In this document: positions 2,746-25,549 of the stretch, piece by piece
How the letters are laid out: each line of letters opens with the position of its first letter
Position numbering within the stretch: the stretch's first letter is position 1
Sequence record: MF630922.1
DNA: 32,486 nucleotides
Strand: one strand, 5' to 3'
Origin: Escherichia phage IMM-001
The notes under the pieces: model-generated
What the model was told of the DNA's origin: nothing
The model's database searches: none
Seen by the model: only the letters and a program-made list of their open reading frames with translations
Made by a program: the position numbers and the translations under genes

Positions 2746-3111
2746 ATGAAATTAACAAAGTTACAAAGAGATGAACTAAAGTTTAAGCTAGGTGGATTCT
2801 GCGCATACTGCGGCTGCGAACTCGGTGATAAGTGGCATGCTGACCATATGAAGCCAGTAATCAGGTATGATGGTAAAATGGTGCACGATGAGCTTGATAA
2901 TATTTCGAACCTTGTCCCGGCGTGCCACGCTTGCAATCTGCATAAGCACTGCAATAGTGTGGAGGATTACCGGAGAATTATTGACGATGGTAGGCGGGAG
3001 TTTTTGGCATCCGGCAAGGGTAAGGCGCTCGTTCGCATGGGGCTGGTTGATATGAAGATGGATGATATTGTGTTCTGGTTCGAGAAGTTTGAGAAATTGA
3101 ATAAGATTTAA
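2746..3111 (+). CDS. HNH endonuclease (121 aa)
   Basis: Cys pairs CAYCGC and CHACNLHKHC with HADH...N...H spacing typical of HNH nucleases; RBS aaggtg. Confidence 0.8.
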   Translation: MKLTKLQRDELKFKLGGFCAYCGCELGDKWHADHMKPVIRYDGKMVHDELDNISNLVPACHACNLHKHCNSVEDYRRIIDDGRREFLASGKGKALVRMGLVDMKMDDIVFWFEKFEKLNKI

Positions 3112-3662: not shown

Positions 3663-3902
3663 ATGTTCGGATTAAACGAGGCGCATTTCAATGCGGTCAA
3701 GAAGCAGGCTAAAAAGCTTAACGATGATTACTCTAAGTTATCACCAAAAGAGCGAAAGAATGACAAGCTAGTTGCTGCGCTAATATCAGGTTTATGGGAG
3801 CCAGTATTTACTATTATCAGTCGAGACCGCTTCGTTTGGGTGGCTGGATATTTGAAGGGTCGCGTTGGCCATGATGAGAATGGGAATAGCCTTTATGAAT
3901 AA
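3663..3902 (+). CDS. hypothetical protein (79 aa)
   Basis: ORF downstream of cassette copy 3. Confidence 0.45.
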   Translation: MFGLNEAHFNAVKKQAKKLNDDYSKLSPKERKNDKLVAALISGLWEPVFTIISRDRFVWVAGYLKGRVGHDENGNSLYE

Positions 3903-4134
3903 GATTAAGTCATTAATGTTTAAGGTTGGAATCCTACATAAGCATAAATATAGATTATTTCGACGCATAAATTGGTATGAGGACGAATATCAGGATGGGT
4001 GCAGGACAAAACTAATCTGTACAGTTTGCGGGAAGATTTTTAACTCAAAGGTTGACCTAATGGTTTGCAAAAGCACGCTGGATTTCATTAGATATGAAAA
4101 AGAGATTGCATCACTTAGGGGTTTTAATGGATAA
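3895..4134 (+). CDS. hypothetical Cys-rich small protein (79 aa), possible zinc ribbon
   Basis: Internal ATG 3895 overlapping upstream stop; CRTKLICTVCGKIF...C cysteine pattern. Confidence 0.4.
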   Translation: MNKIKSLMFKVGILHKHKYRLFRRINWYEDEYQDGCRTKLICTVCGKIFNSKVDLMVCKSTLDFIRYEKEIASLRGFNG

Positions 4135-4426
4135 GTTTATTGAATGCGTAGTATACACCTTATGCATCACTCTCGTTTTTTGCTCATTGATGATTAGCTT
4201 TGGTGTGCTGTTTAGAATCATTTAGGACAAAATCCTTGCATCACTGACCGGAAAGTATTAGTATGTACCTAGTAGCACAAAAGGCCACTAAGTGGCAACG
4301 GCGCACGGAGCGAAACACAAAGTCCATAGCTCACTAAGCAGCGTACATGGCAAAATCGGTCGAGAAACTCGACGCTGGATGCGTAACCAGCAATCTTTCA
4401 ATAGCGAAATCGCTACTTAAAGATTT

Positions 4427-4502
4427 GTTCTGCTGGCGTAACAGGATAACGCAAAGACCTCCTAAGTCTTAGTTACTGGTTCGAGTCCAGTGCGGAACAC
4501 CA
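4427..4502 (+). tRNA. tRNA-Arg, anticodon CCU (reads AGG), 76 nt with encoded CCA
   Basis: Hand-folded cloverleaf: acceptor gttctgc/gcggaac with one G-U, D stem gcgt/acgc, anticodon stem aagac/gtctt, loop ctCCTaa, variable agtt, T stem actgg/ccagt, T loop ttcgagt, discriminator A. Confidence 0.85.
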
Positions 4503-4518
4503 ATTAAGGAGATTCATT

Positions 4519-4701
4519 ATGTGGGACGTTAAGCTTTCAATCCGCTTAATGGGTCGAAGCTGTAAGAATTGCCAGCAAGAATTTATCGCGTCGGTTGCCG
4601 CTGAGTCCTCAGAGGAAGCGGTAGCGAAAGTTAAGGTAATGTCGGGAGCCGACCCTGATTACCACAAATTCCTAGTAGCTTACGTTCGTGAGCGAAAGTA
4701 A
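4519..4701 (+). CDS. hypothetical small protein (60 aa)
   Basis: Strong RBS aaggag 7 nt upstream, immediately after the tRNA. Confidence 0.5.
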   Translation: MWDVKLSIRLMGRSCKNCQQEFIASVAAESSEEAVAKVKVMSGADPDYHKFLVAYVRERK

Positions 4702-4754
4702 AAGAAGTTCTACTCTCTGGTTGTTTCATCTCTCTCGTTGTTGTTCGACACTTC

Positions 4755-4778
4755 GCTCTCTTCTTGAGGGCTTTTTTA
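4755..4778 (+). terminator. Rho-independent terminator
   Basis: Stem gctctc/gagggc (one G-U), loop ttctt, then T6. Confidence 0.6.
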
Positions 4779-4787
4779 GTGTTTGTG

Positions 4788-4816
4788 TTGACAATAATCA
4801 ACGGGTGCATTAGCAT
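4788..4816 (+). promoter_or_regulatory. Sigma70-like promoter (TTGACA, 17 nt, TAGCAT)
   Basis: Perfect -35 hexamer, weaker -10; upstream of 4858 gene. Confidence 0.45.
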
Positions 4817-4857
4817 TAACTCATCTGGGCGACCCACTAACCAGAAGGAGATTTAAA

Positions 4858-5061
4858 ATGATGACATTAAAAGCAGTATACAAAGACGGCAGCGAGCAGA
4901 TTATTGAAGTTAAAAGAGTTGGCTACGTGCAAGGTTCTCGACTTGTTGACTTCGTTGATTGCGATGGTCCAGGTCAGTTCTTCATGGAGGACCGAGTATT
5001 GTCAGTTTATGTGATGAATTCAGCCGGCAGCACCGTTGGGAAATACCAGCTAGCGGATTGA
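4858..5061 (+). CDS. hypothetical small protein (67 aa)
   Basis: RBS aaggag; followed by terminator. Confidence 0.5.
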   Translation: MMTLKAVYKDGSEQIIEVKRVGYVQGSRLVDFVDCDGPGQFFMEDRVLSVYVMNSAGSTVGKYQLAD

Positions 5062-5071
5062 GTTGCTATCA

Positions 5072-5095
5072 AGCCCCTTAATTGGGGCTTTTTTA
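5072..5095 (+). terminator. Rho-independent terminator
   Basis: agcccc-ttaatt-ggggct then T6. Confidence 0.7.
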
Positions 5096-5106
5096 CGTCT
5101 GCAATA

Positions 5107-5115
5107 TGCTATAAT
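5107..5115 (+). promoter_or_regulatory. Extended -10 promoter element (TGcTATAAT) upstream of terminase genes
   Basis: TGn + TATAAT 27 nt upstream of the terS-like start; no clear -35. Confidence 0.35.
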
Positions 5116-5142
5116 GCTAACCTGAACAAAAGGAGGACGAAA

Positions 5143-5667
5143 ATGAAAGACGAAAACTTCAGCAGCACAGCACAAGAAAAGGTTAGCTCTGGAAACTTTA
5201 AAGCCATGTACAACAAAAAGTATTCTGACATTACAACGCTAGCCAAGAACCGAATTATGACACCAGAGCAGCTATTTGACATTGCTGTGAAATACTTCTC
5301 TTGGGCAGAAGACCAGGCAATCAAGGCAATTGAAACCGCTAGCTTCCAGGGTGTTGTCACTGAAAACCTGGTGCACAAGCCTAGAGTATTCACGCTAACT
5401 GGATTCTGCCTTTACTGCGGCGTCACCCATAGCGCCATCGAAAAATGGAGGAAGTCTGCTGGTTATGACGAGGTAATTGCGTTCATTGATTCCGTTATTC
5501 GTGAGCAGAAATACCAGCTAGCAGCATCTGGCATTGTTAACCCAGGCATGATTTCCAAAGAACTTGGCATCGACAAGCCACAGGAGATTAACATCACCAG
5601 CACATCTTCAGCTAATGACGTCGACACAATGAAAGAAGCGCTGGAGTCGGTAATTAGTAAACTGTAA
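5143..5667 (+). CDS. putative terminase small subunit (174 aa)
   Basis: Position directly upstream of large terminase, size, RBS aaaggagg; no motif check possible. Confidence 0.5.
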   Translation: MKDENFSSTAQEKVSSGNFKAMYNKKYSDITTLAKNRIMTPEQLFDIAVKYFSWAEDQAIKAIETASFQGVVTENLVHKPRVFTLTGFCLYCGVTHSAIEKWRKSAGYDEVIAFIDSVIREQKYQLAASGIVNPGMISKELGIDKPQEINITSTSSANDVDTMKEALESVISKL

Positions 5668-5683: not shown

Positions 5684-7252
5684 ATGTCTAATTTAGTTTG
5701 GGAGGAAATGACGTCAGCCGAAAAGATGGCGGTTAAGGCAATATCAACTCATAGCTTTGAGGGTTTTCTGAGGGTGTGGTTCCAACTGACACAGGGCGAG
5801 CGGTACATCCCAAACTGGCATCATAAATACCTTTGCAGGATAATTGACGAGATTATCGCTGGTGAGCGTAAGGACACCATCATTAACGTCGCTCCCGGTA
5901 GTGGAAAGACAGAAATTGCCTCAATCCACTTTCCAGCATACTCGATGGTTAAGCTGAAGAAGGTCAGGAACCTTAACATATCGTTTGCCGACTCACTGGT
6001 TAAGCGTAACTCCAAGCGAGTGCGTGACTTAATTAAGTCGGTTGAGTTCCAGGAGTTATTCCCATGCAAGTTTGGCACATGCAAGGATGATGAGCTACAG
6101 GTTCTGGATGAGTCTGGCAAAGTACGGTTTGAGTCAATCTCCAAGGCTGCTGGAGGCCAAATCACCGGCGCGAGGGGCGGCTATATAACCGATTCATATA
6201 GTGGCGCGGTTCTGTTAGATGATTTTGACAAACCAGCCGATATGCTTTCTGCCGTGTTCCGCGCAAACAATCACGTGATGCTAAAGAACACCATCCGCTC
6301 TCGTAGGGCTAGCTCAGTTAAAGGTAAAGCAACTCCGATTATCTCTATTCAGCAGCGACTTCACGTCAACGATAGCACGTGGTTCATGATGAATGGAGGT
6401 ATGGGTATCAGCTTCGATTTGATTAAGATACCAGCGCTAGTAACTGAAGATTACGTGGATACACTTCCTGACTGGATTAAGCAGCAATTCATTGATGACG
6501 TTCTATCAAGCGAATATATTGAGCGTGACGGCGTGAAATATTACAGCTACTTCCCAGAAAAGGAGTCGGTTAACGACCTGGTAGCAATGTGGGATTCAGA
6601 CAGCTATACATTCCTTAGCCAGTATCAGCAGGAGCCTGTAGCGCTTGGTGGTAATCTGATTAATGTAGAATGGCTCCAGCGCATTAGCGACACTCTGCGA
6701 CCGCCAGCTAAGTATGATTACAGATTCATGACTCTTGATACCGCCATGACAACAAAGTCATACAGCGACTTTAGTGTACTGCAACTTTGGGGTTATAAGG
6801 ATGGGAAGATTTACCTGCTTGACCAGCGACGAGGTAAGTTTGAAGCGCCGGAGCTAGAGGCTGAGTTATTGGATTTCGAGAAGATAGCAAGGGCATCCAA
6901 TCAGACAGATGGTATCCTTCGTAAAATCATCATCGAGAAGAAAGCCTCTGGCATCGGGCTGATTCAATCGGTAGGTAGGGTTATGCGGACACCAATCGAG
7001 CCATATGTGCCAGATAACGACAAGCTAACTCGCGTAATGAGTGCACTGCCTCAGATTAAGGCTGGTAACGTTATCCTGCCTGAGTCTGCAACATGGCTAA
7101 ACGGATTACTAACGGAGATTGCGGCATTCACGGCAGATGACTCGCATGTTCATGATGACCAGATTGACTGTTTAACTATGGCTGTCAACCTTGTTCTAAA
7201 CATTGCAGAGGATCCTAAATCAAGGATGATGAGATTAGCAGGAATCAAATAG
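5684..7252 (+). CDS. terL: terminase large subunit (522 aa)
   Basis: Walker A-like VAPGSGKTE near N-terminus, size and position before portal. Confidence 0.88.
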   Translation: MSNLVWEEMTSAEKMAVKAISTHSFEGFLRVWFQLTQGERYIPNWHHKYLCRIIDEIIAGERKDTIINVAPGSGKTEIASIHFPAYSMVKLKKVRNLNISFADSLVKRNSKRVRDLIKSVEFQELFPCKFGTCKDDELQVLDESGKVRFESISKAAGGQITGARGGYITDSYSGAVLLDDFDKPADMLSAVFRANNHVMLKNTIRSRRASSVKGKATPIISIQQRLHVNDSTWFMMNGGMGISFDLIKIPALVTEDYVDTLPDWIKQQFIDDVLSSEYIERDGVKYYSYFPEKESVNDLVAMWDSDSYTFLSQYQQEPVALGGNLINVEWLQRISDTLRPPAKYDYRFMTLDTAMTTKSYSDFSVLQLWGYKDGKIYLLDQRRGKFEAPELEAELLDFEKIARASNQTDGILRKIIIEKKASGIGLIQSVGRVMRTPIEPYVPDNDKLTRVMSALPQIKAGNVILPESATWLNGLLTEIAAFTADDSHVHDDQIDCLTMAVNLVLNIAEDPKSRMMRLAGIK

Positions 7253-7753: not shown

Positions 7754-9025
7754 ATGGTAAAAGCAGATTCATATGCCACGCAGTTCCTCGGTGGGGCTAG
7801 TGATGGCAGCGAGATTTACGGTCACTTTGGCAACACCTACCTAACACCTCCTTTCGCTGATTCACTTTACGTATCCAACTCAATTGTTCGTCGCATTGTC
7901 GACACCATACCGGAGACTGCAATCGCAGCAGGTTTCCATATCGACGGCATTGATGACGAAGGTGAGTTCTGGTCCAGGTGGGATTACCTGAAGGTTAACG
8001 AGTCAATATCTGACGCGTGGTCATGGGCGAGATTATTTGGCGGCTCGGCAATTGTGGCTATCGTTAAGGATAATCGTGCGTTAACTAGTCCAGTACGTGA
8101 AGGCGCAGAACTTGAATCACTTCGAGTATACGAGCGAAGTCAGGTAAAGGTGCAAACGAAGGAGGAAAACCCTCGCAACGTGCGATTTGGTAAGCCGCTA
8201 ACGTACCGCATCACGCCTGAAGGCAGCACCATGTTTTATGACGTTCACTATTCCAGGGTTCACATCATGGATGGTGAGAAAATCCCCAGTTCATTGCGTC
8301 GCGGTAATGATGGGTGGGGTGCTAGCGTACTGACTCCTGACTTGCTGGAATCAATCAAGGATTATCAGACGTGCGAGAAGCTGGCAACTCAGTTATTGCG
8401 ACGTAAGCAACAGGCGGTTTGGAAGGCTAAAGGTCTGGCTGAATTGTGTGACGACGCTGAAGGTTTTGGCGCGGCCAGGTTGAGACTGGCTCAGGTTGAT
8501 GATAACTCTGGAGTTGGGCGTGCTATTGGTATCGATGCTGAGGCTGAAGAATACAGCGTTCTGAATTCGGATATTGGTGGTATTGATGGATTCCTCGATA
8601 AGAAGTTCGACAGGATTGTTGCTCTGAGCGGTATTCATGAAATCATACTAAAGGGCCGTAACGTTGGTGGTCTATCCTCCAGCCAAAACACAGCTCTGGA
8701 GACATTTCATAAGCTAATCGACCGCAAGCGCAATGAGGAGTTACTACCTGTCCTTGGGTTCTTAATCCCATTCATCACAACGGAGCAAGAATGGTCGGTT
8801 GAGTTTAATCCGCTAGCTCAGGAATCGAAGAAAGACCGCGCTGAAATACTGAAGAATAACGTTGACTCAATCTCAGCCCTTATCACTAACGGCGTAATGG
8901 ATACAGATGAAGCACGAGATACCTTGCGTGCATTAGCACCTGAGGTTAAGATTGGTGAAGGTTCAATTGTTACCGAGCAATCCGCTCAGGAAGATTTACC
9001 AAAAGAGGAGGTTGTAATTGAATAA
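7754..9025 (+). CDS. portal protein (423 aa)
   Basis: Size and position after terminase; 8-nt overlap with next gene. Confidence 0.7.
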   Translation: MVKADSYATQFLGGASDGSEIYGHFGNTYLTPPFADSLYVSNSIVRRIVDTIPETAIAAGFHIDGIDDEGEFWSRWDYLKVNESISDAWSWARLFGGSAIVAIVKDNRALTSPVREGAELESLRVYERSQVKVQTKEENPRNVRFGKPLTYRITPEGSTMFYDVHYSRVHIMDGEKIPSSLRRGNDGWGASVLTPDLLESIKDYQTCEKLATQLLRRKQQAVWKAKGLAELCDDAEGFGAARLRLAQVDDNSGVGRAIGIDAEAEEYSVLNSDIGGIDGFLDKKFDRIVALSGIHEIILKGRNVGGLSSSQNTALETFHKLIDRKRNEELLPVLGFLIPFITTEQEWSVEFNPLAQESKKDRAEILKNNVDSISALITNGVMDTDEARDTLRALAPEVKIGEGSIVTEQSAQEDLPKEEVVIE

Positions 9026-11490: not shown

Positions 11491-12432
11491 ATGGCCATTA
11501 AATTTGATGCAGAACAAGCAAAAATCACCGCTCACCTTGAGCAAATGGGTGTAGATAAGGCTGATGCTGCTGGTATCTGGACCGTTAAGCAGTTGACCGC
11601 GAATCTGGCGCGCGCTTACGAAGCAGAGTATTCGGAAAACTCCGTAGTTAATATCTTCCCTGTAACTAACGAAATCCCAAGTCACGCAAAGTATTTTGAG
11701 TATCCTGAGTTTGACGGAGCAGCAATTGCACAGATTATCGCTGAATACTCTGATGACCTGCCGCTGGTTGATGCGTTCATGACCGAGAAACAAGGTAAAG
11801 TGTTCCGCTTCGGTAACGCATTCCTGATCTCCATCGACGAAATCAAAGCAGGTGCAGCAACTGGTCAGTCACTGTCATCTCGCAAACAGGCTCTGGCATT
11901 CGAAGCGCACGATAACCTGCTTGATAAACTTGTATGGTCTGGCTCTGCACCGCACGGCATTCCTAGCGTATTCAATGCGCCGAACGTTAACCAGGTTGTT
12001 GCTGGTACTTGGAACTCCGCGGCTGCTGCTATGACTGACATTACCGCTCTTATCGATGCTATCGAAACAGCGACCAATGGCGCTCACACCGCGACTGATA
12101 TCCTGCTTCCAGCTTCCGCTCGCCGCCTGATGCAAGAATTGGTGCCGAATACCTCTATCAGCTACGCGCAGTTGTTTGCAACCAATAACTCCGGCATCAC
12201 TTTGCGCTATCTGCAATTCCTGGACAACTACGACGGCGCAAACGGCAAAGCTGCACTGGCATTTGAAAAAAATCCGTTAAATCTTAGTATTGAGATTCCA
12301 GAAGTTACTAACGTACTTCCGGGCCAACCGAAGGATTTACATTTCAAATACCCGGTGACTTCAAAGGCTACAGGCTTGATTTTATATAGGCCGCTAACTG
12401 TTTCCGTACTGAAAGGCATTACCTACGCCTAA
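11491..12432 (+). CDS. major capsid protein (313 aa)
   Basis: Size, position, own promoter and terminator; not motif-verified. Confidence 0.6.
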   Translation: MAIKFDAEQAKITAHLEQMGVDKADAAGIWTVKQLTANLARAYEAEYSENSVVNIFPVTNEIPSHAKYFEYPEFDGAAIAQIIAEYSDDLPLVDAFMTEKQGKVFRFGNAFLISIDEIKAGAATGQSLSSRKQALAFEAHDNLLDKLVWSGSAPHGIPSVFNAPNVNQVVAGTWNSAAAAMTDITALIDAIETATNGAHTATDILLPASARRLMQELVPNTSISYAQLFATNNSGITLRYLQFLDNYDGANGKAALAFEKNPLNLSIEIPEVTNVLPGQPKDLHFKYPVTSKATGLILYRPLTVSVLKGITYA

Positions 12433-12507: not shown

Positions 12508-12981
12508 ATGGAATTTTCAGATTATATAGTTTACGACAATGGGAAGTTACGCTGGAAGAAGAAGACAGGGAGGTCAACCCAGATAGGCAAGGAGATAGGA
12601 ATAAATTCAGGGAGCGGATACCTTACATTCAAGTTTTATGGTAAAAGATACAAAGTCCACAGGGTTGTGTGGATGATAATGGTTGGGCCAATACCTGATG
12701 GTATGGAAACTGATCACATAAATCATGTTCGAGACGATAATAGAATTGAGAATCTCAGGCTTGTATCAAGGATTGAGAACATGAAGAACAAAAGCGTTTA
12801 CAGAAGCAACTCTTCCGGATTTTGCGGGGTTAGTGTCAAAAGCAGCGGCATGTACCACGCCTACATACAGTTTAATGGGAAGCAAGTAAACCTTGGTTTA
12901 TTTAAGGAAAAGCAGGATGCAGTAACGGCAAGATTGGAGGCAGAAATGGTTTATGGATTTCATGATAATCATGGGTTATAA
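12508..12981 (+). CDS. HNH homing-type endonuclease (157 aa)
   Basis: ETDHINHVRDDNRIENLRLVSRIENMKNK motif; free-standing between capsid and neck genes. Confidence 0.8.
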   Translation: MEFSDYIVYDNGKLRWKKKTGRSTQIGKEIGINSGSGYLTFKFYGKRYKVHRVVWMIMVGPIPDGMETDHINHVRDDNRIENLRLVSRIENMKNKSVYRSNSSGFCGVSVKSSGMYHAYIQFNGKQVNLGLFKEKQDAVTARLEAEMVYGFHDNHGL

Positions 12982-14904: not shown

Positions 14905-15564
14905 ATGGCCCATCTCAGCAATGGCACCCAAGTCTTCGTAGAAGGTAGTAGGGGTGAAGCTATCAACGTAACCGCAATTTCTAATGCGGCTAACCCTGTT
15001 TTTACCGTGGCTGCCAGTTCAGGCTTAGCGGTTGGTGACTACATTCTAGTAACCAGCGCATCATCTACATTTATGGCAGATAAGCAGCTTCGCGTAACGG
15101 CAGTTTCAGACACTAGCGTCACGGTTGAAGGCATTGACACCTCCAATGTCACCAAATTCCCAGCTGGCGGAACGGCTGAAATCGTTAAGATTCTTAGTTG
15201 GTTTGAGATTCCTTGCGTTCAGGACGTATCAACTGACGGTGGCGAACAGCAGTTCGTTAACTTCCAGTGCTTGTCCGATGACCGTGAGCAACAAATTCCA
15301 ACTTACAAGTCTGCGGTAACAAATACCTACACGTTCGCGCACGAATACACCAACCCGGTATATCCTATTCTGCGTAACTATGACGAAGCTGGTACTGTTG
15401 TTGCTATCCGTATGTTTGTACCTCGCGCTAGTGAGATGCGTCTTCAGTCTGGTACCATCGCCTTTAACGACACCCCAAGCATTGGTGTCAACGAAATCGA
15501 AACGGTATCCATCGCGGTATCTATCCGTGGCAGGCTGAGTTCTGTAGCATCTGAACTGTCATAA
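14905..15564 (+). CDS. major tail protein (219 aa)
   Basis: Position before chaperones and tape measure; strong terminator after it. Confidence 0.55.
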   Translation: MAHLSNGTQVFVEGSRGEAINVTAISNAANPVFTVAASSGLAVGDYILVTSASSTFMADKQLRVTAVSDTSVTVEGIDTSNVTKFPAGGTAEIVKILSWFEIPCVQDVSTDGGEQQFVNFQCLSDDREQQIPTYKSAVTNTYTFAHEYTNPVYPILRNYDEAGTVVAIRMFVPRASEMRLQSGTIAFNDTPSIGVNEIETVSIAVSIRGRLSSVASELS

Positions 15565-16626: not shown

Positions 16627-19599
16627 ATGGCAACTAACGAAATTGCTGGTATCACGCTAGCCGTCGACGTCGCTCAGGTCGATAGAGGTACGCAGTCCTT
16701 ACAGAAATTCAGGCAAGCAAACGAGCAAGCTGCAACAGGCATTAATAGCTTCGTTAATGCTGAACTTGTAGCCAAGACTCAAGCAAGGGATACAGCAAGG
16801 CAGCTTGAGGAGCAGCGAAAATCTTTCGCATCGCTTCAGCAAGTAATCGACCCAACTGCTGCTAAATTCCAGAAGTTGCAGAAAGCGGCAACCGAATTGG
16901 ACAAAGCATTTGAGTCTGGGCTGGTTCCTGATGATGAGTTCTTCAGGCTTGGCTCTGTTATTGAAACTCAAATTAATAAGCTAAACAGGTCCAGGGCTGC
17001 GTTGAGTGAAGAGGGTAGGGCTGCACTCCAAGCTTCAATAGATAAAGAAAAAGCAACAGCAACCGCGCAAAAGTTCATTCAATCCCTTGAGAACGAGGCG
17101 AATGCGGCAACTCTCACAAGGACTGAGCTGCTTCAACTTAAGGCTGCTCAGCTAGGCGTTAGCGACCAAGCGGCACCGATTATCGACAGGATTGGTAAGG
17201 CCGCTGAGGCGTCAGCAGTTCAATTGCAGAAGCAAAGCTCAGCTTTTGTTAAGTCAGGTTTAAGCGCAGGGCAGTACAAGCAAGCAATACGACAGCTCCC
17301 TGCTCAGATTACAGATATCGGAACCTCACTTGCTGGCGGCATCCCAATCTGGCTGATTGCAATTCAGCAAGGCGGTCAGATTAAGGATAGTTTCGGCGGT
17401 ATTGCGAACACGGCAAGGTTTGCACTTGCGGCCATTAATCCATTGACAGCTGTTGTTGGTACTTTGGGGCTGGCTCTTGGTGCTCTTGGTGTTGCAGCTT
17501 ATCAGGCTGATAAGAACACTCGCGGACTAGCATCAACGATAACGCTTGTTGGCAATTCAACTATCACTTCAACGGCACAGATAAATCAGGTTGTTGACGG
17601 GATTGAGAAAACAACATTAGCCACGCGCGGTCTTATTCAGGAAATAGCAAATAGTCTGGTAGCAAACGGTAATCTTACGCTTACGCAGATAGATAAGATA
17701 ACCAAGGCAACAGCGCAGTGGGCGACTGTAACATCAACCGACTCAAAGACTATCCTTGGATACTTTGACCAGATCACAAAGGACCCAATAAAGGGACTTA
17801 CTGACCTTGATAAGCAATTTAACTTTCTTCAGTATGGGCAGTTAAAATATATTGAGAATATCAGGAAGACGGCTGGAGAAACAGAGGCAGTAACCGCAGC
17901 CACTGAACTATTCGCTGAAGTTATGGAAAATAGGCTAGCAGACGTAGCGCTAAGCCTCAACCCTCTTGAAAGCGCGTGGAATAGCTTCAGGAAGTTTGTA
18001 AGTGAGATCTTGGATGACATCAGCAAAAGGACGCTTGGGGCCCTTAACTTAATAACTGACGTTGTTGCTGGTACGATTGAGCAGATAAGGTCACTCATAA
18101 ACTCCGGCGACATTCTCTTGGGTGAGTTTGCTATAGCAGCAACCAAGACGCTTCAGTCAATACCCGGCCTTGGTGATATAGGTAATGAGGCAATTGCTGA
18201 GCAGCAAAAGATTGTTGATGCAGCCAAGAAGCAAAATGAGGAGTTAGCAAAAAGCATATCTGAGCGAGATGCTAGAATCAGGAAGGGTGAGCTTGGCTAT
18301 GTGGAGAGAAATAATAACACTAACCTGAATGGAAATAATGCATCAACTGATAAGGAGTTCGGAGCAAGGAAGAAGGCCCTAGCAGACGAGCTTGATGCCA
18401 TAATGAAGGCTAGAAGGGAGAGGAACAAAGCTGTAAAAGAAGAAAGGGATTTAACCTTATCTTATGAATCTGGCGTTCTTGCACTTCAGGCTCAATTGAA
18501 GGTTTTGCAAGAGCATAGAACGATAAACGATGTAATAAGCAACGAGCGCAAGCAGCTATTTCAGGAAGAGGCTAAGTTTGCAATACTCGAGCAAAGATAT
18601 GCTGATGGTAGCCTAACCAAGTCTCAAGCCAAACTGCTCTCGCAGAAGGATATCATTCTTGAACAGGCTAAACAGAAGGCTGAACTAGGAGATCAGATTG
18701 TTCTTCAAGAGAGGTCAAACAAGTTACTTGATGATAACCTAAAGAAGACTGTTCAGATTACAAATGAGGCAAATAATGTTTCTCTTGCTGCTAATTTATC
18801 TGACAGGGAGAAGCAAAGGGCGAAAGAGCTTCAGGCGCTTCAATCCAATCAGTTAAACAAAGGTGGCTCTGTAGATGACGCTGATTTCCAGGCTTTACTG
18901 GAAGCAAGGCGTAATTTTTATGCTCAAGAGGACGCGCTACGTGAAAACTGGCTAGCCGGTGTGCAGTCATCATTCGCTAATTGGGCAGAGAGCGCGACAG
19001 ATGCATTTTCTATAGCTGGTGAATTGACCACTTCCGTGTTTACCGGAATTACAGAGCAGATTACCAGCCTTGTAACAACTGGCACGGCAGACTTCAGGAG
19101 CTTTACCGTTGAAATCCTGAAACAGATTGCCAAGATTGCAACACAGCTCTTAATTGTTAAGGCGATTGAGTCAAGTTTAAGCAGCTTCGGCGGAACTGGC
19201 GGCGCTATTGGTTCAATTGGTGGCGCGCTTGGCTTTGCTGGCGGTGGATATACTGGTGATGGAGGTAAGTACCAACCTGCCGGAACTGTGCACAAAGGTG
19301 AATTTGTTTTCACCAAAGAAGCAACCAGCAGGATTGGAGTCAAGAACCTGTACAAGCTTATGCGAGGTTATGCAAATGGCGGTGCTGTTGGTGGGCCATC
19401 TGGTTATGCTAATGGTGGTGCTGTCGGCGGTACTAATGTCAGTGTTGGCGGCGTTACTGTTAACGTAAATTCTGGAATCGGTGGCGGCAATGATGCTAAG
19501 GCTATAGAATCTGGAGTTAAGGTTATCGTGGCTGAGGAAATCAGTAAGTCATTCCAGCAGGGCGGCAGGGCGTATCAGTTCTTGCGCGGTTACAACTAA
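16627..19599 (+). CDS. tail tape measure protein (990 aa)
   Basis: Long helical protein with hydrophobic central segments and Gly-rich C-terminus, after chaperone pair. Confidence 0.85.
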
Positions 19600-22162: not shown

Positions 22163-25100
22163 ATGGCGCAGGACATTAAAATATACGGCAGCAAGGGCGG
22201 TAGTTCTAAGCAGAAACAACCAGTAGAGCAGCCAGATAACTTGATATCTGTAAACAAGGTTAAGGTTTTGCTAGCTGTTTCTGATGGTGAAGTTGATAAC
22301 TCGTTCTCGCTTAAAGACCTGTATCTTGCTGACGTTCCGGTTCAGAACCAGAATGGCACATACAACTACGAGGGTGTGACAGCAGAATTTCGCCCTGGCA
22401 CGCAGAGTCAGGATTACATCGCCGGCCTCGAGGGTGCCAGCTCTGAGGTGCAGGTCAATAGGGAGATTACAAACTCAACGCCTTACATAATTGCCGTTAA
22501 CAACACTCAACTATCTGCGATTAGGGTTAAATTATACTGGCCTCGACTGATTAATCAGGAAAGTAACGGAGACCTGAACGGAACAACTTGCGAGTACGCT
22601 ATTGACTTATCTGTTGATGGCTCCACGTACAGTGAGTACACGCGAGGCGTAGCTAACGGCAAGACGACTAGCGGGTACGACAGGAGTATCAGGGTAAACC
22701 TTCCAGCTGAGTTTTCTAGCGCTCTTGTTAGGGTCCGTAAAATTACAGCAGACTCAGAAAGCTCTACTCTGGTTAACGGAATGCAAATTACGACCTATCA
22801 GGAAGTAATCGATGCTAAATTCCGTTATCCGCTTACAGCGCTGGTTTACGTTGAGTTTAGTTCGGACCTCTTCCCTAACGGAATCCCGGCCATCTCAATC
22901 AAAAAGAAGTGGAAGTTGATTCGCGTTCCGACTAACTATAACCCAGAGACAAGAACTTATAGCGGAACTTGGAACGGCACATTTAAGATGGCGTATTCAA
23001 ATAACCCAGCGTGGGTTCTTTACGACCTTGTAACTAACCAGCGATATGGGCTTGACCAACGCGAACTTGGTATCACAATTGATAAATGGGGGTTGTATGA
23101 AGCGGCGCAATTCTGTGACCAAATGGTACCAGACGGAAAGGGAGGTGTGGAGCCGCGTTACTTGTGTGATGTTGTAATTCAGCAAAAGGTTGAGGCATAC
23201 CAAGTCATCCGTGATATCTGTTCTATCTTCCGTGGGCTAACATTCTATGATGGTGAGCAGATAGGGATTGTTGTCGATAAGCCGCGCCAACCATCATACG
23301 TATTCACCAACGATAACGTTGTTGACGGGTTATTTAACAGGACTTTCGGAAGCGACAAATCGCTATACACAGTCGCTAACGTTCAGTTTGATGATGTTGA
23401 AAACTCATACCAGCAAGATGTAGAGCCAGTATTTGAGCTAGAGGCAACAAGGCGTTTTGGTTACAACCCGGTTGACCTTACCGCTATTGGCTGTACTCGC
23501 AGGAGTGAAGCAAACCGCCGTGGTCGTTGGTTGTTAAAGACAAACTTGCGCAGCGAGACGATAAGTTTCACCACAGGGCTAGAAGGTATGATCCCAATGA
23601 TTGGTGAGGTGATTGCGGTTAATGACCAGGCATGGTCTAGCAACTACACCTTAAACCTTTCTGGTCGTATCGAGTCTGTAAGTGGTTTGCAGGTTTTCGT
23701 GCCGTTTAAGATTGATGCTGCTGCCGGCGACAGGATTCTGATTAACAAGCCTGACGGAATGCCGGAATACAGGACTATTGCATCTGTATCTGAAGATGGA
23801 ATGACGCTGCAACTTAACACGGCGTTTAGCTTCAACCCTCAACCTGATACTGTATTTGCGATTGATAAGGAGAATCTTGCGCTTCAGCAATATGTTGTGA
23901 CCGGGATTCAAAAAGCAGACAGCGATGGAGATGATGCGTTCGGTTACAGTATTACAGCGGTTGAGTACGACCCGAACAAATACGACGAGATTGATTACGG
24001 CGTAAACATTCAGGACAGGCCAACGTCAATCGTTGAGCCAGATACATTACTGGCACCTGAGAATGTTCAGGTAAGCAGCTACAGTAAGGTTGTGCAGGGT
24101 ATTTCAGTTGAGACTATGGTCATCACCTGGGATAAGGTTCAGTACGCTAAGACATACACAGTTCAGTGGCGTAAGGAGAATGGAAACTGGATTAATGTAC
24201 CGCGCACTGCAAACACAGAAGTTGATATTGAAGGTATTTACGCAGGCATTTATCAGGTTCGTGTAAGGGCTGTTTCTGATACTGAAAACGTATCTGCGTG
24301 GTCTGAAATTGTTTCAGCTAGCCTTACAGGTAAGATTGGAACTCCTTCTGCACCTACAGTTATTACGGCTTCAGATGACGAGGTGTTTGGCATTATGGTT
24401 AAGTGGGGATTCCCTGACAACTCAACTGATACGTCATACACTGAATTGCAGCAAGTTGCCGACAATGGTGATGGCACTTACACGCCAGAGAACGCAAGCT
24501 TGCTAACATTAGTTCCTTACCCGAGCTACGAGTATTGGCACACTACGCTACCGGCAGGTAAGGTTATCTGGTACAGGGCGCGACTAATCGACAAGATTGG
24601 TAACGTCTCACCATGGACTGATTTTGTAATGGGCATGGCAAGCGATGACGTTTCGGCAATCATTGGTGAAATTAAGGTTGATATAGAGAACTCGGAGGGG
24701 TTCAAGTATCTTCAGCAGAATGCCATTGAGTCAAACGGAGCTATTCAGGCGCAAGCAGAATCAATCATCGAGAACACCCTGGCGAATGATGGTGACGTTC
24801 GTCGAATGACTAAGGAAAACAGCAAGAGGAAGGCTGAATTTATTCAGGCAGTCAATCTTATCGCTGATGAAGAAAGGGCTCGCGTAGAGGCCCTGACTCA
24901 GCTTAAGGCACAGATTGATGATGAGATTGTAGCTTCGTTAACAAGGATTGATACTGCGCTAGCTGAGGAAACTCAAGCAAGGACCACTGCGGACACTGCT
25001 TTATCCGCAAGGCTTGGCGAGAATGAAGCTGCATTAAATGAGAAGCTTGACACATACGTTACCGCTGATTCAATTGGCGCTCAGTATGGAATTAAGCTCG

Positions 25101-25549
25101 GTCTTACTTACAATGGAGTTCAGTACAGTTCTGGGATGAGCATGGAGCTAACAGGTTCTGATGGTAATGTTCGTAGCCAGGTCATCTTTGACGCTAACAG
25201 GTTCGCGATCAGTAATGGTGTTAGTTCCGGTTCCGGTCAGTGGTCATTGCCTTTCGTAGTTGAGAATAATCAGGTCTTCATTCAGAGCGCAGTAATTCAG
25301 GACGGTTCAATCACTAACGCGAAGATTGGTAACAGGATTCAATCTAACAACTACGTGGCTGGATCTCAAGGATGGGCGATTGACAAGGCAGGTAGCGCCG
25401 AGTTTAGTAACGCAACTGTAAGGGGGAATTTATACGCAAATAACGGTAACTTTGCATTTAACGGAACAAACAACACTGTACAGATTAACAACAACGGAAT
25501 TACAGTTAATTTACCGAATGGTGGCAGGGTTGTAGTTGGAGTGTGGTAA
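22163..25549 (+). CDS. central tail fibre / host specificity protein, lambda J-like (1128 aa)
   Basis: Size and position after I-like gene; long multi-domain protein. Confidence 0.8.
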   Translation: MAQDIKIYGSKGGSSKQKQPVEQPDNLISVNKVKVLLAVSDGEVDNSFSLKDLYLADVPVQNQNGTYNYEGVTAEFRPGTQSQDYIAGLEGASSEVQVNREITNSTPYIIAVNNTQLSAIRVKLYWPRLINQESNGDLNGTTCEYAIDLSVDGSTYSEYTRGVANGKTTSGYDRSIRVNLPAEFSSALVRVRKITADSESSTLVNGMQITTYQEVIDAKFRYPLTALVYVEFSSDLFPNGIPAISIKKKWKLIRVPTNYNPETRTYSGTWNGTFKMAYSNNPAWVLYDLVTNQRYGLDQRELGITIDKWGLYEAAQFCDQMVPDGKGGVEPRYLCDVVIQQKVEAYQVIRDICSIFRGLTFYDGEQIGIVVDKPRQPSYVFTNDNVVDGLFNRTFGSDKSLYTVANVQFDDVENSYQQDVEPVFELEATRRFGYNPVDLTAIGCTRRSEANRRGRWLLKTNLRSETISFTTGLEGMIPMIGEVIAVNDQAWSSNYTLNLSGRIESVSGLQVFVPFKIDAAAGDRILINKPDGMPEYRTIASVSEDGMTLQLNTAFSFNPQPDTVFAIDKENLALQQYVVTGIQKADSDGDDAFGYSITAVEYDPNKYDEIDYGVNIQDRPTSIVEPDTLLAPENVQVSSYSKVVQGISVETMVITWDKVQYAKTYTVQWRKENGNWINVPRTANTEVDIEGIYAGIYQVRVRAVSDTENVSAWSEIVSASLTGKIGTPSAPTVITASDDEVFGIMVKWGFPDNSTDTSYTELQQVADNGDGTYTPENASLLTLVPYPSYEYWHTTLPAGKVIWYRARLIDKIGNVSPWTDFVMGMASDDVSAIIGEIKVDIENSEGFKYLQQNAIESNGAIQAQAESIIENTLANDGDVRRMTKENSKRKAEFIQAVNLIADEERARVEALTQLKAQIDDEIVASLTRIDTALAEETQARTTADTALSARLGENEAALNEKLDTYVTADSIGAQYGIKLGLTYNGVQYSSGMSMELTGSDGNVRSQVIFDANRFAISNGVSSGSGQWSLPFVVENNQVFIQSAVIQDGSITNAKIGNRIQSNNYVAGSQGWAIDKAGSAEFSNATVRGNLYANNGNFAFNGTNNTVQINNNGITVNLPNGGRVVVGVW

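Follow-up and report, generated by a model that had tools for sequence, protein, structure and literature searches.

A tRNA-Arg(CCU) gene in Escherichia phage IMM-001 and the choice of arginine codons among T1-like phages

Escherichia phage IMM-001 encodes a genuine and canonical elongator tRNA-Arg(CCU), located at positions 4427-4502 of the 32,486-nucleotide stretch of sequence record MF630922.1 that was analysed here as a whole (the window). The cognate codon, AGG, is in large excess in this phage, and among its relatives the use of AGG and AGA changes, in a codon-specific manner, together with the anticodon carried at the same locus. Of the functions considered for this tRNA, codon supply has the best support in this AGG-rich genome, and we consider it likely. 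The tRNA gene as such is already known in T1-like phages, where it is a matter of routine annotation. All that is new is that, across the family, the anticodon state of the locus (none, UCU or CCU) is linked to the choice of arginine codons, which is a clear case of a known principle and not a new type of system.

We searched the complete 32.5-kb window with ARAGORN, which reports exactly one tRNA, a tRNA-Arg with anticodon CCT on the + strand. The Rfam family RF00005 matches 4427-4499 with 58.9 bits, for a gathering score of 29 (E=1.8e-10), so that the threshold is exceeded across the full tRNA model (positions 1-71 of 71). In terms of structure, the unconstrained minimum-free-energy fold of the 76 nucleotides is the canonical cloverleaf. 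In a positional parse the stems measure 7, 4, 5 and 5 bp, mispairs are absent, and the only wobble is U5-G68. The 7-nt anticodon loop, CUCCUAA, contains U33, C34-C35-U36 and the purine A37. The first-pass annotation had described a complete cloverleaf with anticodon CCT at this place and proposed running a tRNA predictor on it; gene call, Rfam score and fold all agree with that description, and a score at twice the threshold does not resemble that of a pseudogene. As for the conserved nucleotides, T8/U8, A14, G18G19 and A20 are in place, with the D loop reading AACAGGATA and the T loop TTCGAGT, and every position expected to form tertiary contacts (U8, A14, G18G19, T54-Psi55-C56 and A58) carries the expected base.

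The identity nucleotides of E. coli ArgRS are A20, C35, U36 or G36, and A73 or G73. The phage tRNA has the complete arginine set (A20, C35, U36 and the discriminator A73), and CCA is encoded in the gene; charging by the host ArgRS would be expected from these features. Some relatives have a tRNA-Trp, a tRNA-Val or a cluster of six tRNAs in this region, and for this reason a permissive Rfam scan was made of 3900-5200, which found no second or degenerate tRNA.

In terms of codon use, AGG is the commonest arginine codon of the phage, with 136 of 414 arginine codons in the curated window ORFs (33%, or 14.5 per 1000 codons). In a sample of 42 annotated E. coli K-12 genes, treated in the same analysis, it accounts for 10 of 799 (1.3%, or 0.68 per 1000). 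The phage thus uses the cognate codon of the tRNA about 20 times as often as the host sample does. In E. coli, AGG is the rarest arginine codon and is read only by the scarce tRNA-Arg(CCU) and tRNA-Arg(UCU). Bailly-Bechet et al. are said to have found in 2007 that phage tRNAs match codons that are common in the phage and rare in the host. The present case resembles the codon-compensating tRNAs of T4 and T5 in the size of this excess and in the concentration of the codon in late structural genes. It differs in that T4 and T5 have sets of tRNAs and the window a single one, and in that the link is visible within one family as three states (no tRNA, UCU and CCU) at orthologous sites.

The distribution of AGG over the genome is uneven. 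Its share of arginine codons is 4% in the exonuclease VIII, Erf and SSB genes (1/25), 19% in packaging and head genes, 20% in the small ORFs of the left arm, 45% in neck and tail genes (84/187) and 54% in one membrane-protein and two methyltransferase genes (15/28). The tape-measure gene (27/43) and the tip protein gene (22/50) are rich in AGG, and three tandem AGG-AGG pairs occur in the phage ORFs. The major capsid and major tail genes have 1 AGG among 7 and 2 among 9 arginine codons, respectively. Since these highly expressed genes avoid AGG, the codon looks tolerated rather than preferred. A count of AGG in early versus late genes had been proposed along with the first description of the tRNA; the contrast that it reveals, 4% in recombination genes and 45% in neck and tail genes, fits a tRNA that is needed mainly for late genes.

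This contrast also bears on a different reading, in which the tRNA is a translational timer, so that AGG-rich late genes are expressed efficiently only after the tRNA has accumulated, while the AGG-poor early genes are independent of it. The model for such a role is bldA, the tRNA-Leu(UAA) of Streptomyces, and the likeness is that in both cases one tRNA reads a rare codon which gene classes use unevenly. Besides the uneven distribution, the predicted placement of the tRNA in a small transcription unit of its own and the scarcity of AGR codons in the recombination genes of all lineages speak for a timer. Unlike what bldA would suggest, however, the bulk late products of the phage come from AGG-poor genes, and the left-arm small ORFs that are clustered with the tRNA already have 20% AGG. 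Unevenness of this kind may equally reflect expression level or mosaic origin. We regard a timer as unlikely.

Next, we compared the locus among relatives. The window gene is the same gene as the tRNA-Arg of other T1-like phages, at the same position upstream of an rtp16-like ORF and the small terminase gene. Since 2014, "1 arginyl-tRNA" has appeared in genome papers on the T1-like group (PMC4070988). The SU57 paper proposes, as an aside, that the tRNA of that phage aids the reading of the rare AGA codon (PMC7718038), and the MSK paper also mentions the tRNA (PMC8421802). In the literature searched we found no analysis of a switch between CCU and UCU or of recoding to AGG. A related tRNA sequence is present in at least 100 phage records, many of them annotated as tRNA-Arg. 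ES and AN_ECEAS have exactly the sequence of the window gene (100% identity), and Jk06, C119, phiJLA23, TR2, CY1 and Rao1 match it at 97%.

Two anticodon types are found at this locus. The CCU type occurs in the window, ES, Christensenvirus (TR2, CY1) and, among Rogunavirinae, in Jk06, AHP24, phiEB49, Sf12, Sd1 and Opt-79; AHS24, also of the Rogunavirinae, is likewise listed among annotated carriers of a CCU-type tRNA-Arg. The UCU type occurs in Rtp, DTL, IME253, CEB_EC3a, Veterinaerplatzvirus, JulesPiccard, SU57, ETEP102, FP and Msk. The two types are 78-83% identical and have acceptor pairs 3-7 and the T arm in common. In the anticodon arm they differ only in the wobble base (C34 or U34) and in one compensated pair, 28-42 (A-U or C-G). 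A third state is represented by T1, which has small ORFs and no tRNA at the equivalent place, and by about 20 Tunavirinae-like loci with no tRNA within 10 kb of terL. Two pattern scans of IMG/VR, made to widen the sample, returned almost only the same cultured phages.

Some loci carry genes beyond the single tRNA-Arg or gene calls that depart from the records. Sd1 has a tRNA-Trp just upstream (locus L008, 8633-8706), phiEB49 a tRNA-Val(AAC) just downstream (L042, 478-554), and the metagenomic contig L033 has six tRNAs (Arg, Ser, Ser, Asn, Trp and Met) at 8322-8969. In Opt-79 the call is an odd tRNA-like sequence of 93 nt (L044, 491-583), and many of the UCU genes of Braunvirinae have a length of 78 nt and an irregular D arm. 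A published comparison states that the tRNA is absent from Rtp and DTL (PMC8421802). ARAGORN finds an intact tRNA-Arg(UCU) in both, at 4893-4969 of NC_007603 for Rtp (the same gene as 684-760 of locus L037) and in MG050172 for DTL (L038, 699-776). Neither record annotates it, and in DTL it is overlapped by an annotated 'hypothetical protein ORF 26'.

Arginine codon choice follows these three states. The comparison was made at conserved arginine columns of orthologues, with gene calls for the relatives obtained by a crude ORF method. In the window, AGG makes up 0.29-0.36 of such columns. Other phages with a CCU tRNA have 0.19-0.32 AGG and 0.02-0.09 AGA, phages with a UCU tRNA have 0.07-0.14 AGG and 0.15-0.17 AGA, and T1-like phages without a tRNA have 0.04-0.05 AGG (0.11 in one locus). 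For the window and T1 at the same columns the counts are 61/168 and 9/168 (Fisher p=8e-13, a value which, like the other p-value of these comparisons, ignores shared ancestry and mosaicism). The first-pass annotation had put forward codon-usage compensation as one of two explanations, and it is this explanation that is strongly supported by the frequency of AGG, in the phage and in the host, and by its covariation with the tRNA type of the relatives. The covariation of AGG and AGA extends to both the presence and the anticodon of the tRNA and is specific to these codons, with ancestry uncorrected.

The specificity is seen when all synonymous codons are considered. At columns with identical residues, AGG for arginine shows the largest rise of any synonymous codon, +0.32 relative to T1 and +0.23 and +0.24 relative to two full genomes of the UCU type, and AGA shows the largest fall in the window relative to UCU phages. 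Where the UCU relatives have AGA, the codon in the window is AGG, at 32:4 and 31:5 for the two relatives. The same third-position change, pooled for Lys, Glu and Gln, gives 151:172 and 134:165 (p about 1e-6 versus the change from AGA to AGG, ancestry ignored). Furthermore, the share of G-ending codons in the purine pairs of Lys, Glu, Gln, Gly and Leu does not rise, with Lys at 0.60 in both. General compositional drift was considered as the source of the AGG excess and rejected, as the other purine-ending codon pairs are unchanged.

A separate lineage points the same way. The contig L033, whose terL is 56% identical, has a non-orthologous CCU tRNA within its cluster of six, and AGG at 0.24-0.32. 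A point against the association is terL, the gene most recently common to the window and a UCU phage (91% identical to that of Msk), in which AGG counts barely differ, 8 and 6.

As for the direction of cause, either the tRNA or the codon use may lead. Phages with no tRNA, the UCU type and the CCU type offer a compact system for asking which of the two is cause and which is consequence. A bolder proposal, speculative and to our minds with only a small chance of being right, is that T1-like phages switched U34/C34 together with one compensating stem pair at a single locus, that their genomes were recoded to match, AGG in CCU phages taking the place of AGA in UCU phages at about 8:1, and that the translation of late genes may also be gated by the tRNA in the manner of bldA. 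If this were true, the family would be a natural three-state experiment on a single tRNA gene that reshapes codon use and the expression programme. On the practical side, the tRNA identifies these phages as relying on AGG decoding, a point that concerns host range, production in strains poor in argW or argU and the expression of tail proteins in the laboratory; the value of this is modest.

We also compared the phage tRNA with the host genes, to which its identity is low, 64% for argW and 61% for argU. With argW it has in common the anticodon, the loop CUCCUAA, U2-A71, a 4-nt variable loop, A20 and A73. Both host tRNAs differ from it in the anticodon stem, the D arm and the T arm; the anticodon stem is AU-rich in the phage (AAGAC/GUCUU) and reads AGCCC/GGGCU in the host. 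A different mixture is seen in the UCU type of the phages, where the 17-nt anticodon arm is identical to that of argU (L040, 224-300), the D arm, the length of the variable loop and G73 are argU-like, and the acceptor and T arms are those of the phage CCU type. Gene conversion or convergence could explain this mixed likeness to argU and argW. A blastn search of the phage tRNA against 5,426 complete E. coli genomes found no match. Given this result and the low identity to argW and argU, the gene is not a recent host copy or a fragment of an attachment site; for a tRNA-derived attachment site, we add that no integrase is found among the neighbouring and right-arm ORFs examined.

The divergence from the host genes would suit another explanation, the second one offered by the first-pass annotation, namely evasion of defences that target tRNAs. 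The phage tRNA would then replace a host tRNA-Arg destroyed by a tRNA-cleaving immune or toxin system and escape cleavage by its difference in sequence, and the low identity, the unlike anticodon stem and the empty blastn search are all in line with this. Colicin D cleaves the anticodon loops of tRNA-Arg, and the retron Eco2 cuts several host tRNAs, a tRNA-Arg among them, in the acceptor stem. Known anti-defence tRNAs (T5 tRNA-Lys with PARIS, T5 tRNA-Tyr with retron Eco7, and those of mycobacteriophage) are similar in being copies of a host isoacceptor with a diverged body. The mycobacteriophage ones have changes in the anticodon loop, whereas the loop here is identical to that of argW, so that the signature of loop mutation is absent. 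In contrast to these systems, codon use accounts for the presence of the tRNA in the window, and a decoy model does not predict a recoding from AGA to AGG that follows the anticodon. The literature searched, with incomplete coverage, contained no arginine-specific antiphage anticodon nuclease, only the broad tRNA nickase retron Eco2. Depletion of the CCU tRNA would also be a poor defence against most phages, because it is a minor isoacceptor for a codon that the host hardly uses. The suggestion of evasion thus found no specific support, and we judge an anti-defence role distinctly unlikely.

Evidence of selection on the cloverleaf comes from 20 distinct tRNA homologues, taken from the retrieved loci of relatives. 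The MAFFT alignment of the tRNAs places a gap wrongly in the anticodon stem, and pairs were counted instead from the positional parse. Compensatory double changes are found at five stem positions. U-A alternates with C-G at acceptor pair 2, G-C with U-A at D-stem pair 3 and A-U with C-G at anticodon-stem pair 2; the first pairs of the T stem and of the anticodon stem both alternate between A-U and G-C. Comparison at this level shows purifying selection on the cloverleaf. A decaying passenger is ruled out by such double compensating changes in the stems.

A passenger origin deserves a closer look in view of how the homology is arranged. The tRNA might be a non-functional pseudogene that hitchhikes in a mosaic module or is left over from an integration site. 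Homology to several relatives does start or stop at the tRNA, matches to Veterinaerplatzvirus begin at window position 4429, and an HNH endonuclease gene (2746-3111) lies 1.3 kb upstream. The part held in common with ES consists of the leader and the tRNA only, and leader and tRNA would therefore act as one mosaic module. Against a passenger, the tRNA is full length, without mispairs and at twice the Rfam threshold, all four of its stems have been kept by compensatory substitutions across the family, and it has been retained at the same site in at least 100 records. An integration leftover is further contradicted by the virulent character of the family, by the lack of an integrase among the ORFs examined and by the fact that E. 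coli tRNA genes have no similarity to the phage tRNA that blastn detects. We reject the passenger, pseudogene and attachment-site readings and put their probability very low.

The features around the tRNA, together with the genes that differ most in AGG content, are listed in Table 1.

Table 1. Coordinates in the window of the tRNA, of features in its vicinity and of structural genes rich or poor in AGG
Feature	Position	Strand	Basis
Candidate sigma-70-type promoter, TTGCAT-17 nt-TAGTAT	4236..4264	+	alignment with relatives
Structured leader of ~160 nt, promoter to tRNA	4265..4426	+	fold z-score
tRNA-Arg, anticodon CCU, 76 nt, CCA encoded	4427..4502	+	ARAGORN, RF00005, positional parse, MFE fold
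Shine-Dalgarno AAGGAG of the 60-aa ORF, 3 nt past the tRNA 3' end	4506..4511	+	direct sequence reading
Conserved 60-aa ORF, rtp16 / phrog_2919 family	4519..4701	+	phrog_2919 E=7.9e-28
Terminator-like hairpin GCTCTCTTCTTGAGGGC then TTTTTT	4755..4771	+	terminator-like site scan
Promoter-like TTGACA-17 nt-TAGCAT, next unit	4788-4816		promoter scan
ORF of next unit	4858-5061		
Strong terminator-like hairpin closing next unit	5071-5090		
Bulk structural genes, AGG-poor	11491-12432 and 14905-15564		
Low-copy giant tail protein genes, AGG-rich	16627-19599 and 22163-25549		

The putative promoter falls below the threshold of a consensus scan, with 3 of 6 matches in its -35 hexamer. It aligns with TTGACG or TTGACT-17 nt-TAGTAT in seven Rogunavirinae and with TTGACA-17 nt-TACATT in ES and AN_ECEAS, and the element is equidistant from the tRNA in the relatives even though the flanking sequence has diverged. 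On the basis of this conservation we infer that it acts as a promoter.

The leader, considered over 4270-4426, folds at -42.2 kcal/mol (z=-2.82 versus shuffled controls) and has no match to an Rfam family. Its last hairpin, 4398-4426, abuts the 5' end of the tRNA and shows one compensatory change relative to ES (T4402C with A4422G, among three sequence variants). The leader of Rogunavirinae is different, and its hairpins also carry compensating swaps.

Downstream, seven bases separate the AAGGAG from the ATG at 4519. That a gene with a strong ribosome-binding site directly follows the tRNA had been noticed at first sight, and the family match of the ORF (E=8e-28) upholds it. A homologous ORF lies 3' of the tRNA in Rtp, JulesPiccard, SU57, Veterinaerplatzvirus, AHP24, CY1 and TR2. 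The ORF is probably co-transcribed with the tRNA, and the hairpin at 4755-4771 is the probable end of their transcription unit. T1 is described, in a passage of a paper that cites the original work (PMC11447400), as having a series of small transcription modules flanked by terminators, and the predicted arrangement of the tRNA unit matches this description.

Our interpretation of these elements is as follows. Host RNA polymerase would transcribe a small unit made of the promoter, the leader, the tRNA, the 60-aa ORF and the terminator-like hairpin. The scan found no + strand terminator-like site between the upstream ORFs and the tRNA, and read-through transcription from upstream is therefore also possible, as an alternative to a promoter of its own. 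Excision of the tRNA would then fall to host RNase P and 3' processing enzymes, and charging to host ArgRS. The tRNA would add decoding capacity for AGG, the commonest arginine codon of the phage and one that is frequent above all in the large tail genes. We infer each of these steps, from transcription at the proposed promoter to the benefit in translation; a search of the literature for the timing of transcription or for expression in Drexlerviridae returned nothing usable.

The window also contains a 21-nt intergenic repeat of TLS, T1 and Rtp, ATAGCACnnnTTGnTAAAA, for which the TLS paper proposes roles as promoter, enhancer or operator. With up to 3 mismatches it occurs 12 times, where 1.9 are expected. 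Eight of the 12 sites are on the + strand (1226, 2276, 3590, 7249, 12432, 15596, 22124 and 29745) and the others are on the - strand (3575, 26872, 27647 and 32430). The repeat was considered as a promoter element of the tRNA and rejected, as the family is present in the window but absent at the tRNA.

In terms of classification, the window belongs to a T1-like siphophage of the Drexlerviridae, nearest to Christensenvirus-like Braunvirinae. The best matches are ES, TR2, CY1, Rao1 and AN_ECEAS, which reach ~86% identity across 55-69% of 25 kb; of these, TR2 and CY1 are assigned to the genus Christensenvirus of the Braunvirinae. Because identity to any GenBank record searched is only ~86%, the phage is probably a new species. 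The layout begins with a left arm of small + strand ORFs without assigned function, which include the neighbours of the tRNA. It continues with the small terminase gene (5143-5667), the large terminase gene (5684-7252) and the portal, head and tail genes up to 25549, beyond which are methyltransferase, exonuclease VIII, Erf and SSB genes. Within this layout, the tRNA belongs to the cluster of left-arm small ORFs, and 640 bp separate it from the small terminase gene downstream. That this is an early region, with early ORFs on both sides, as the first-pass annotation had it, is an assumption.

Judged from these comparisons, the genome is a mosaic. [quoted passage not shown] The large terminase has 91% amino acid identity to those of IME253 and Msk, which both carry a UCU tRNA, while the tRNA of the window is of the CCU type.

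Two minor observations concern other genes. In T1 (ST64, L002 4948-5478), a T4-like polynucleotide kinase/phosphatase of the tRNA-repair type is present in the equivalent left-arm region, together with no tRNA; no homologue of it was noticed among the ORFs scanned in the left arm of the window. Lastly, there are two HNH endonuclease ORFs in the window, both on the + strand. The first is the one upstream of the tRNA, and the second (12508-12981) lies between the major capsid and neck genes, has AGR as 8 of its 10 arginine codons and looks like a mobile insertion.
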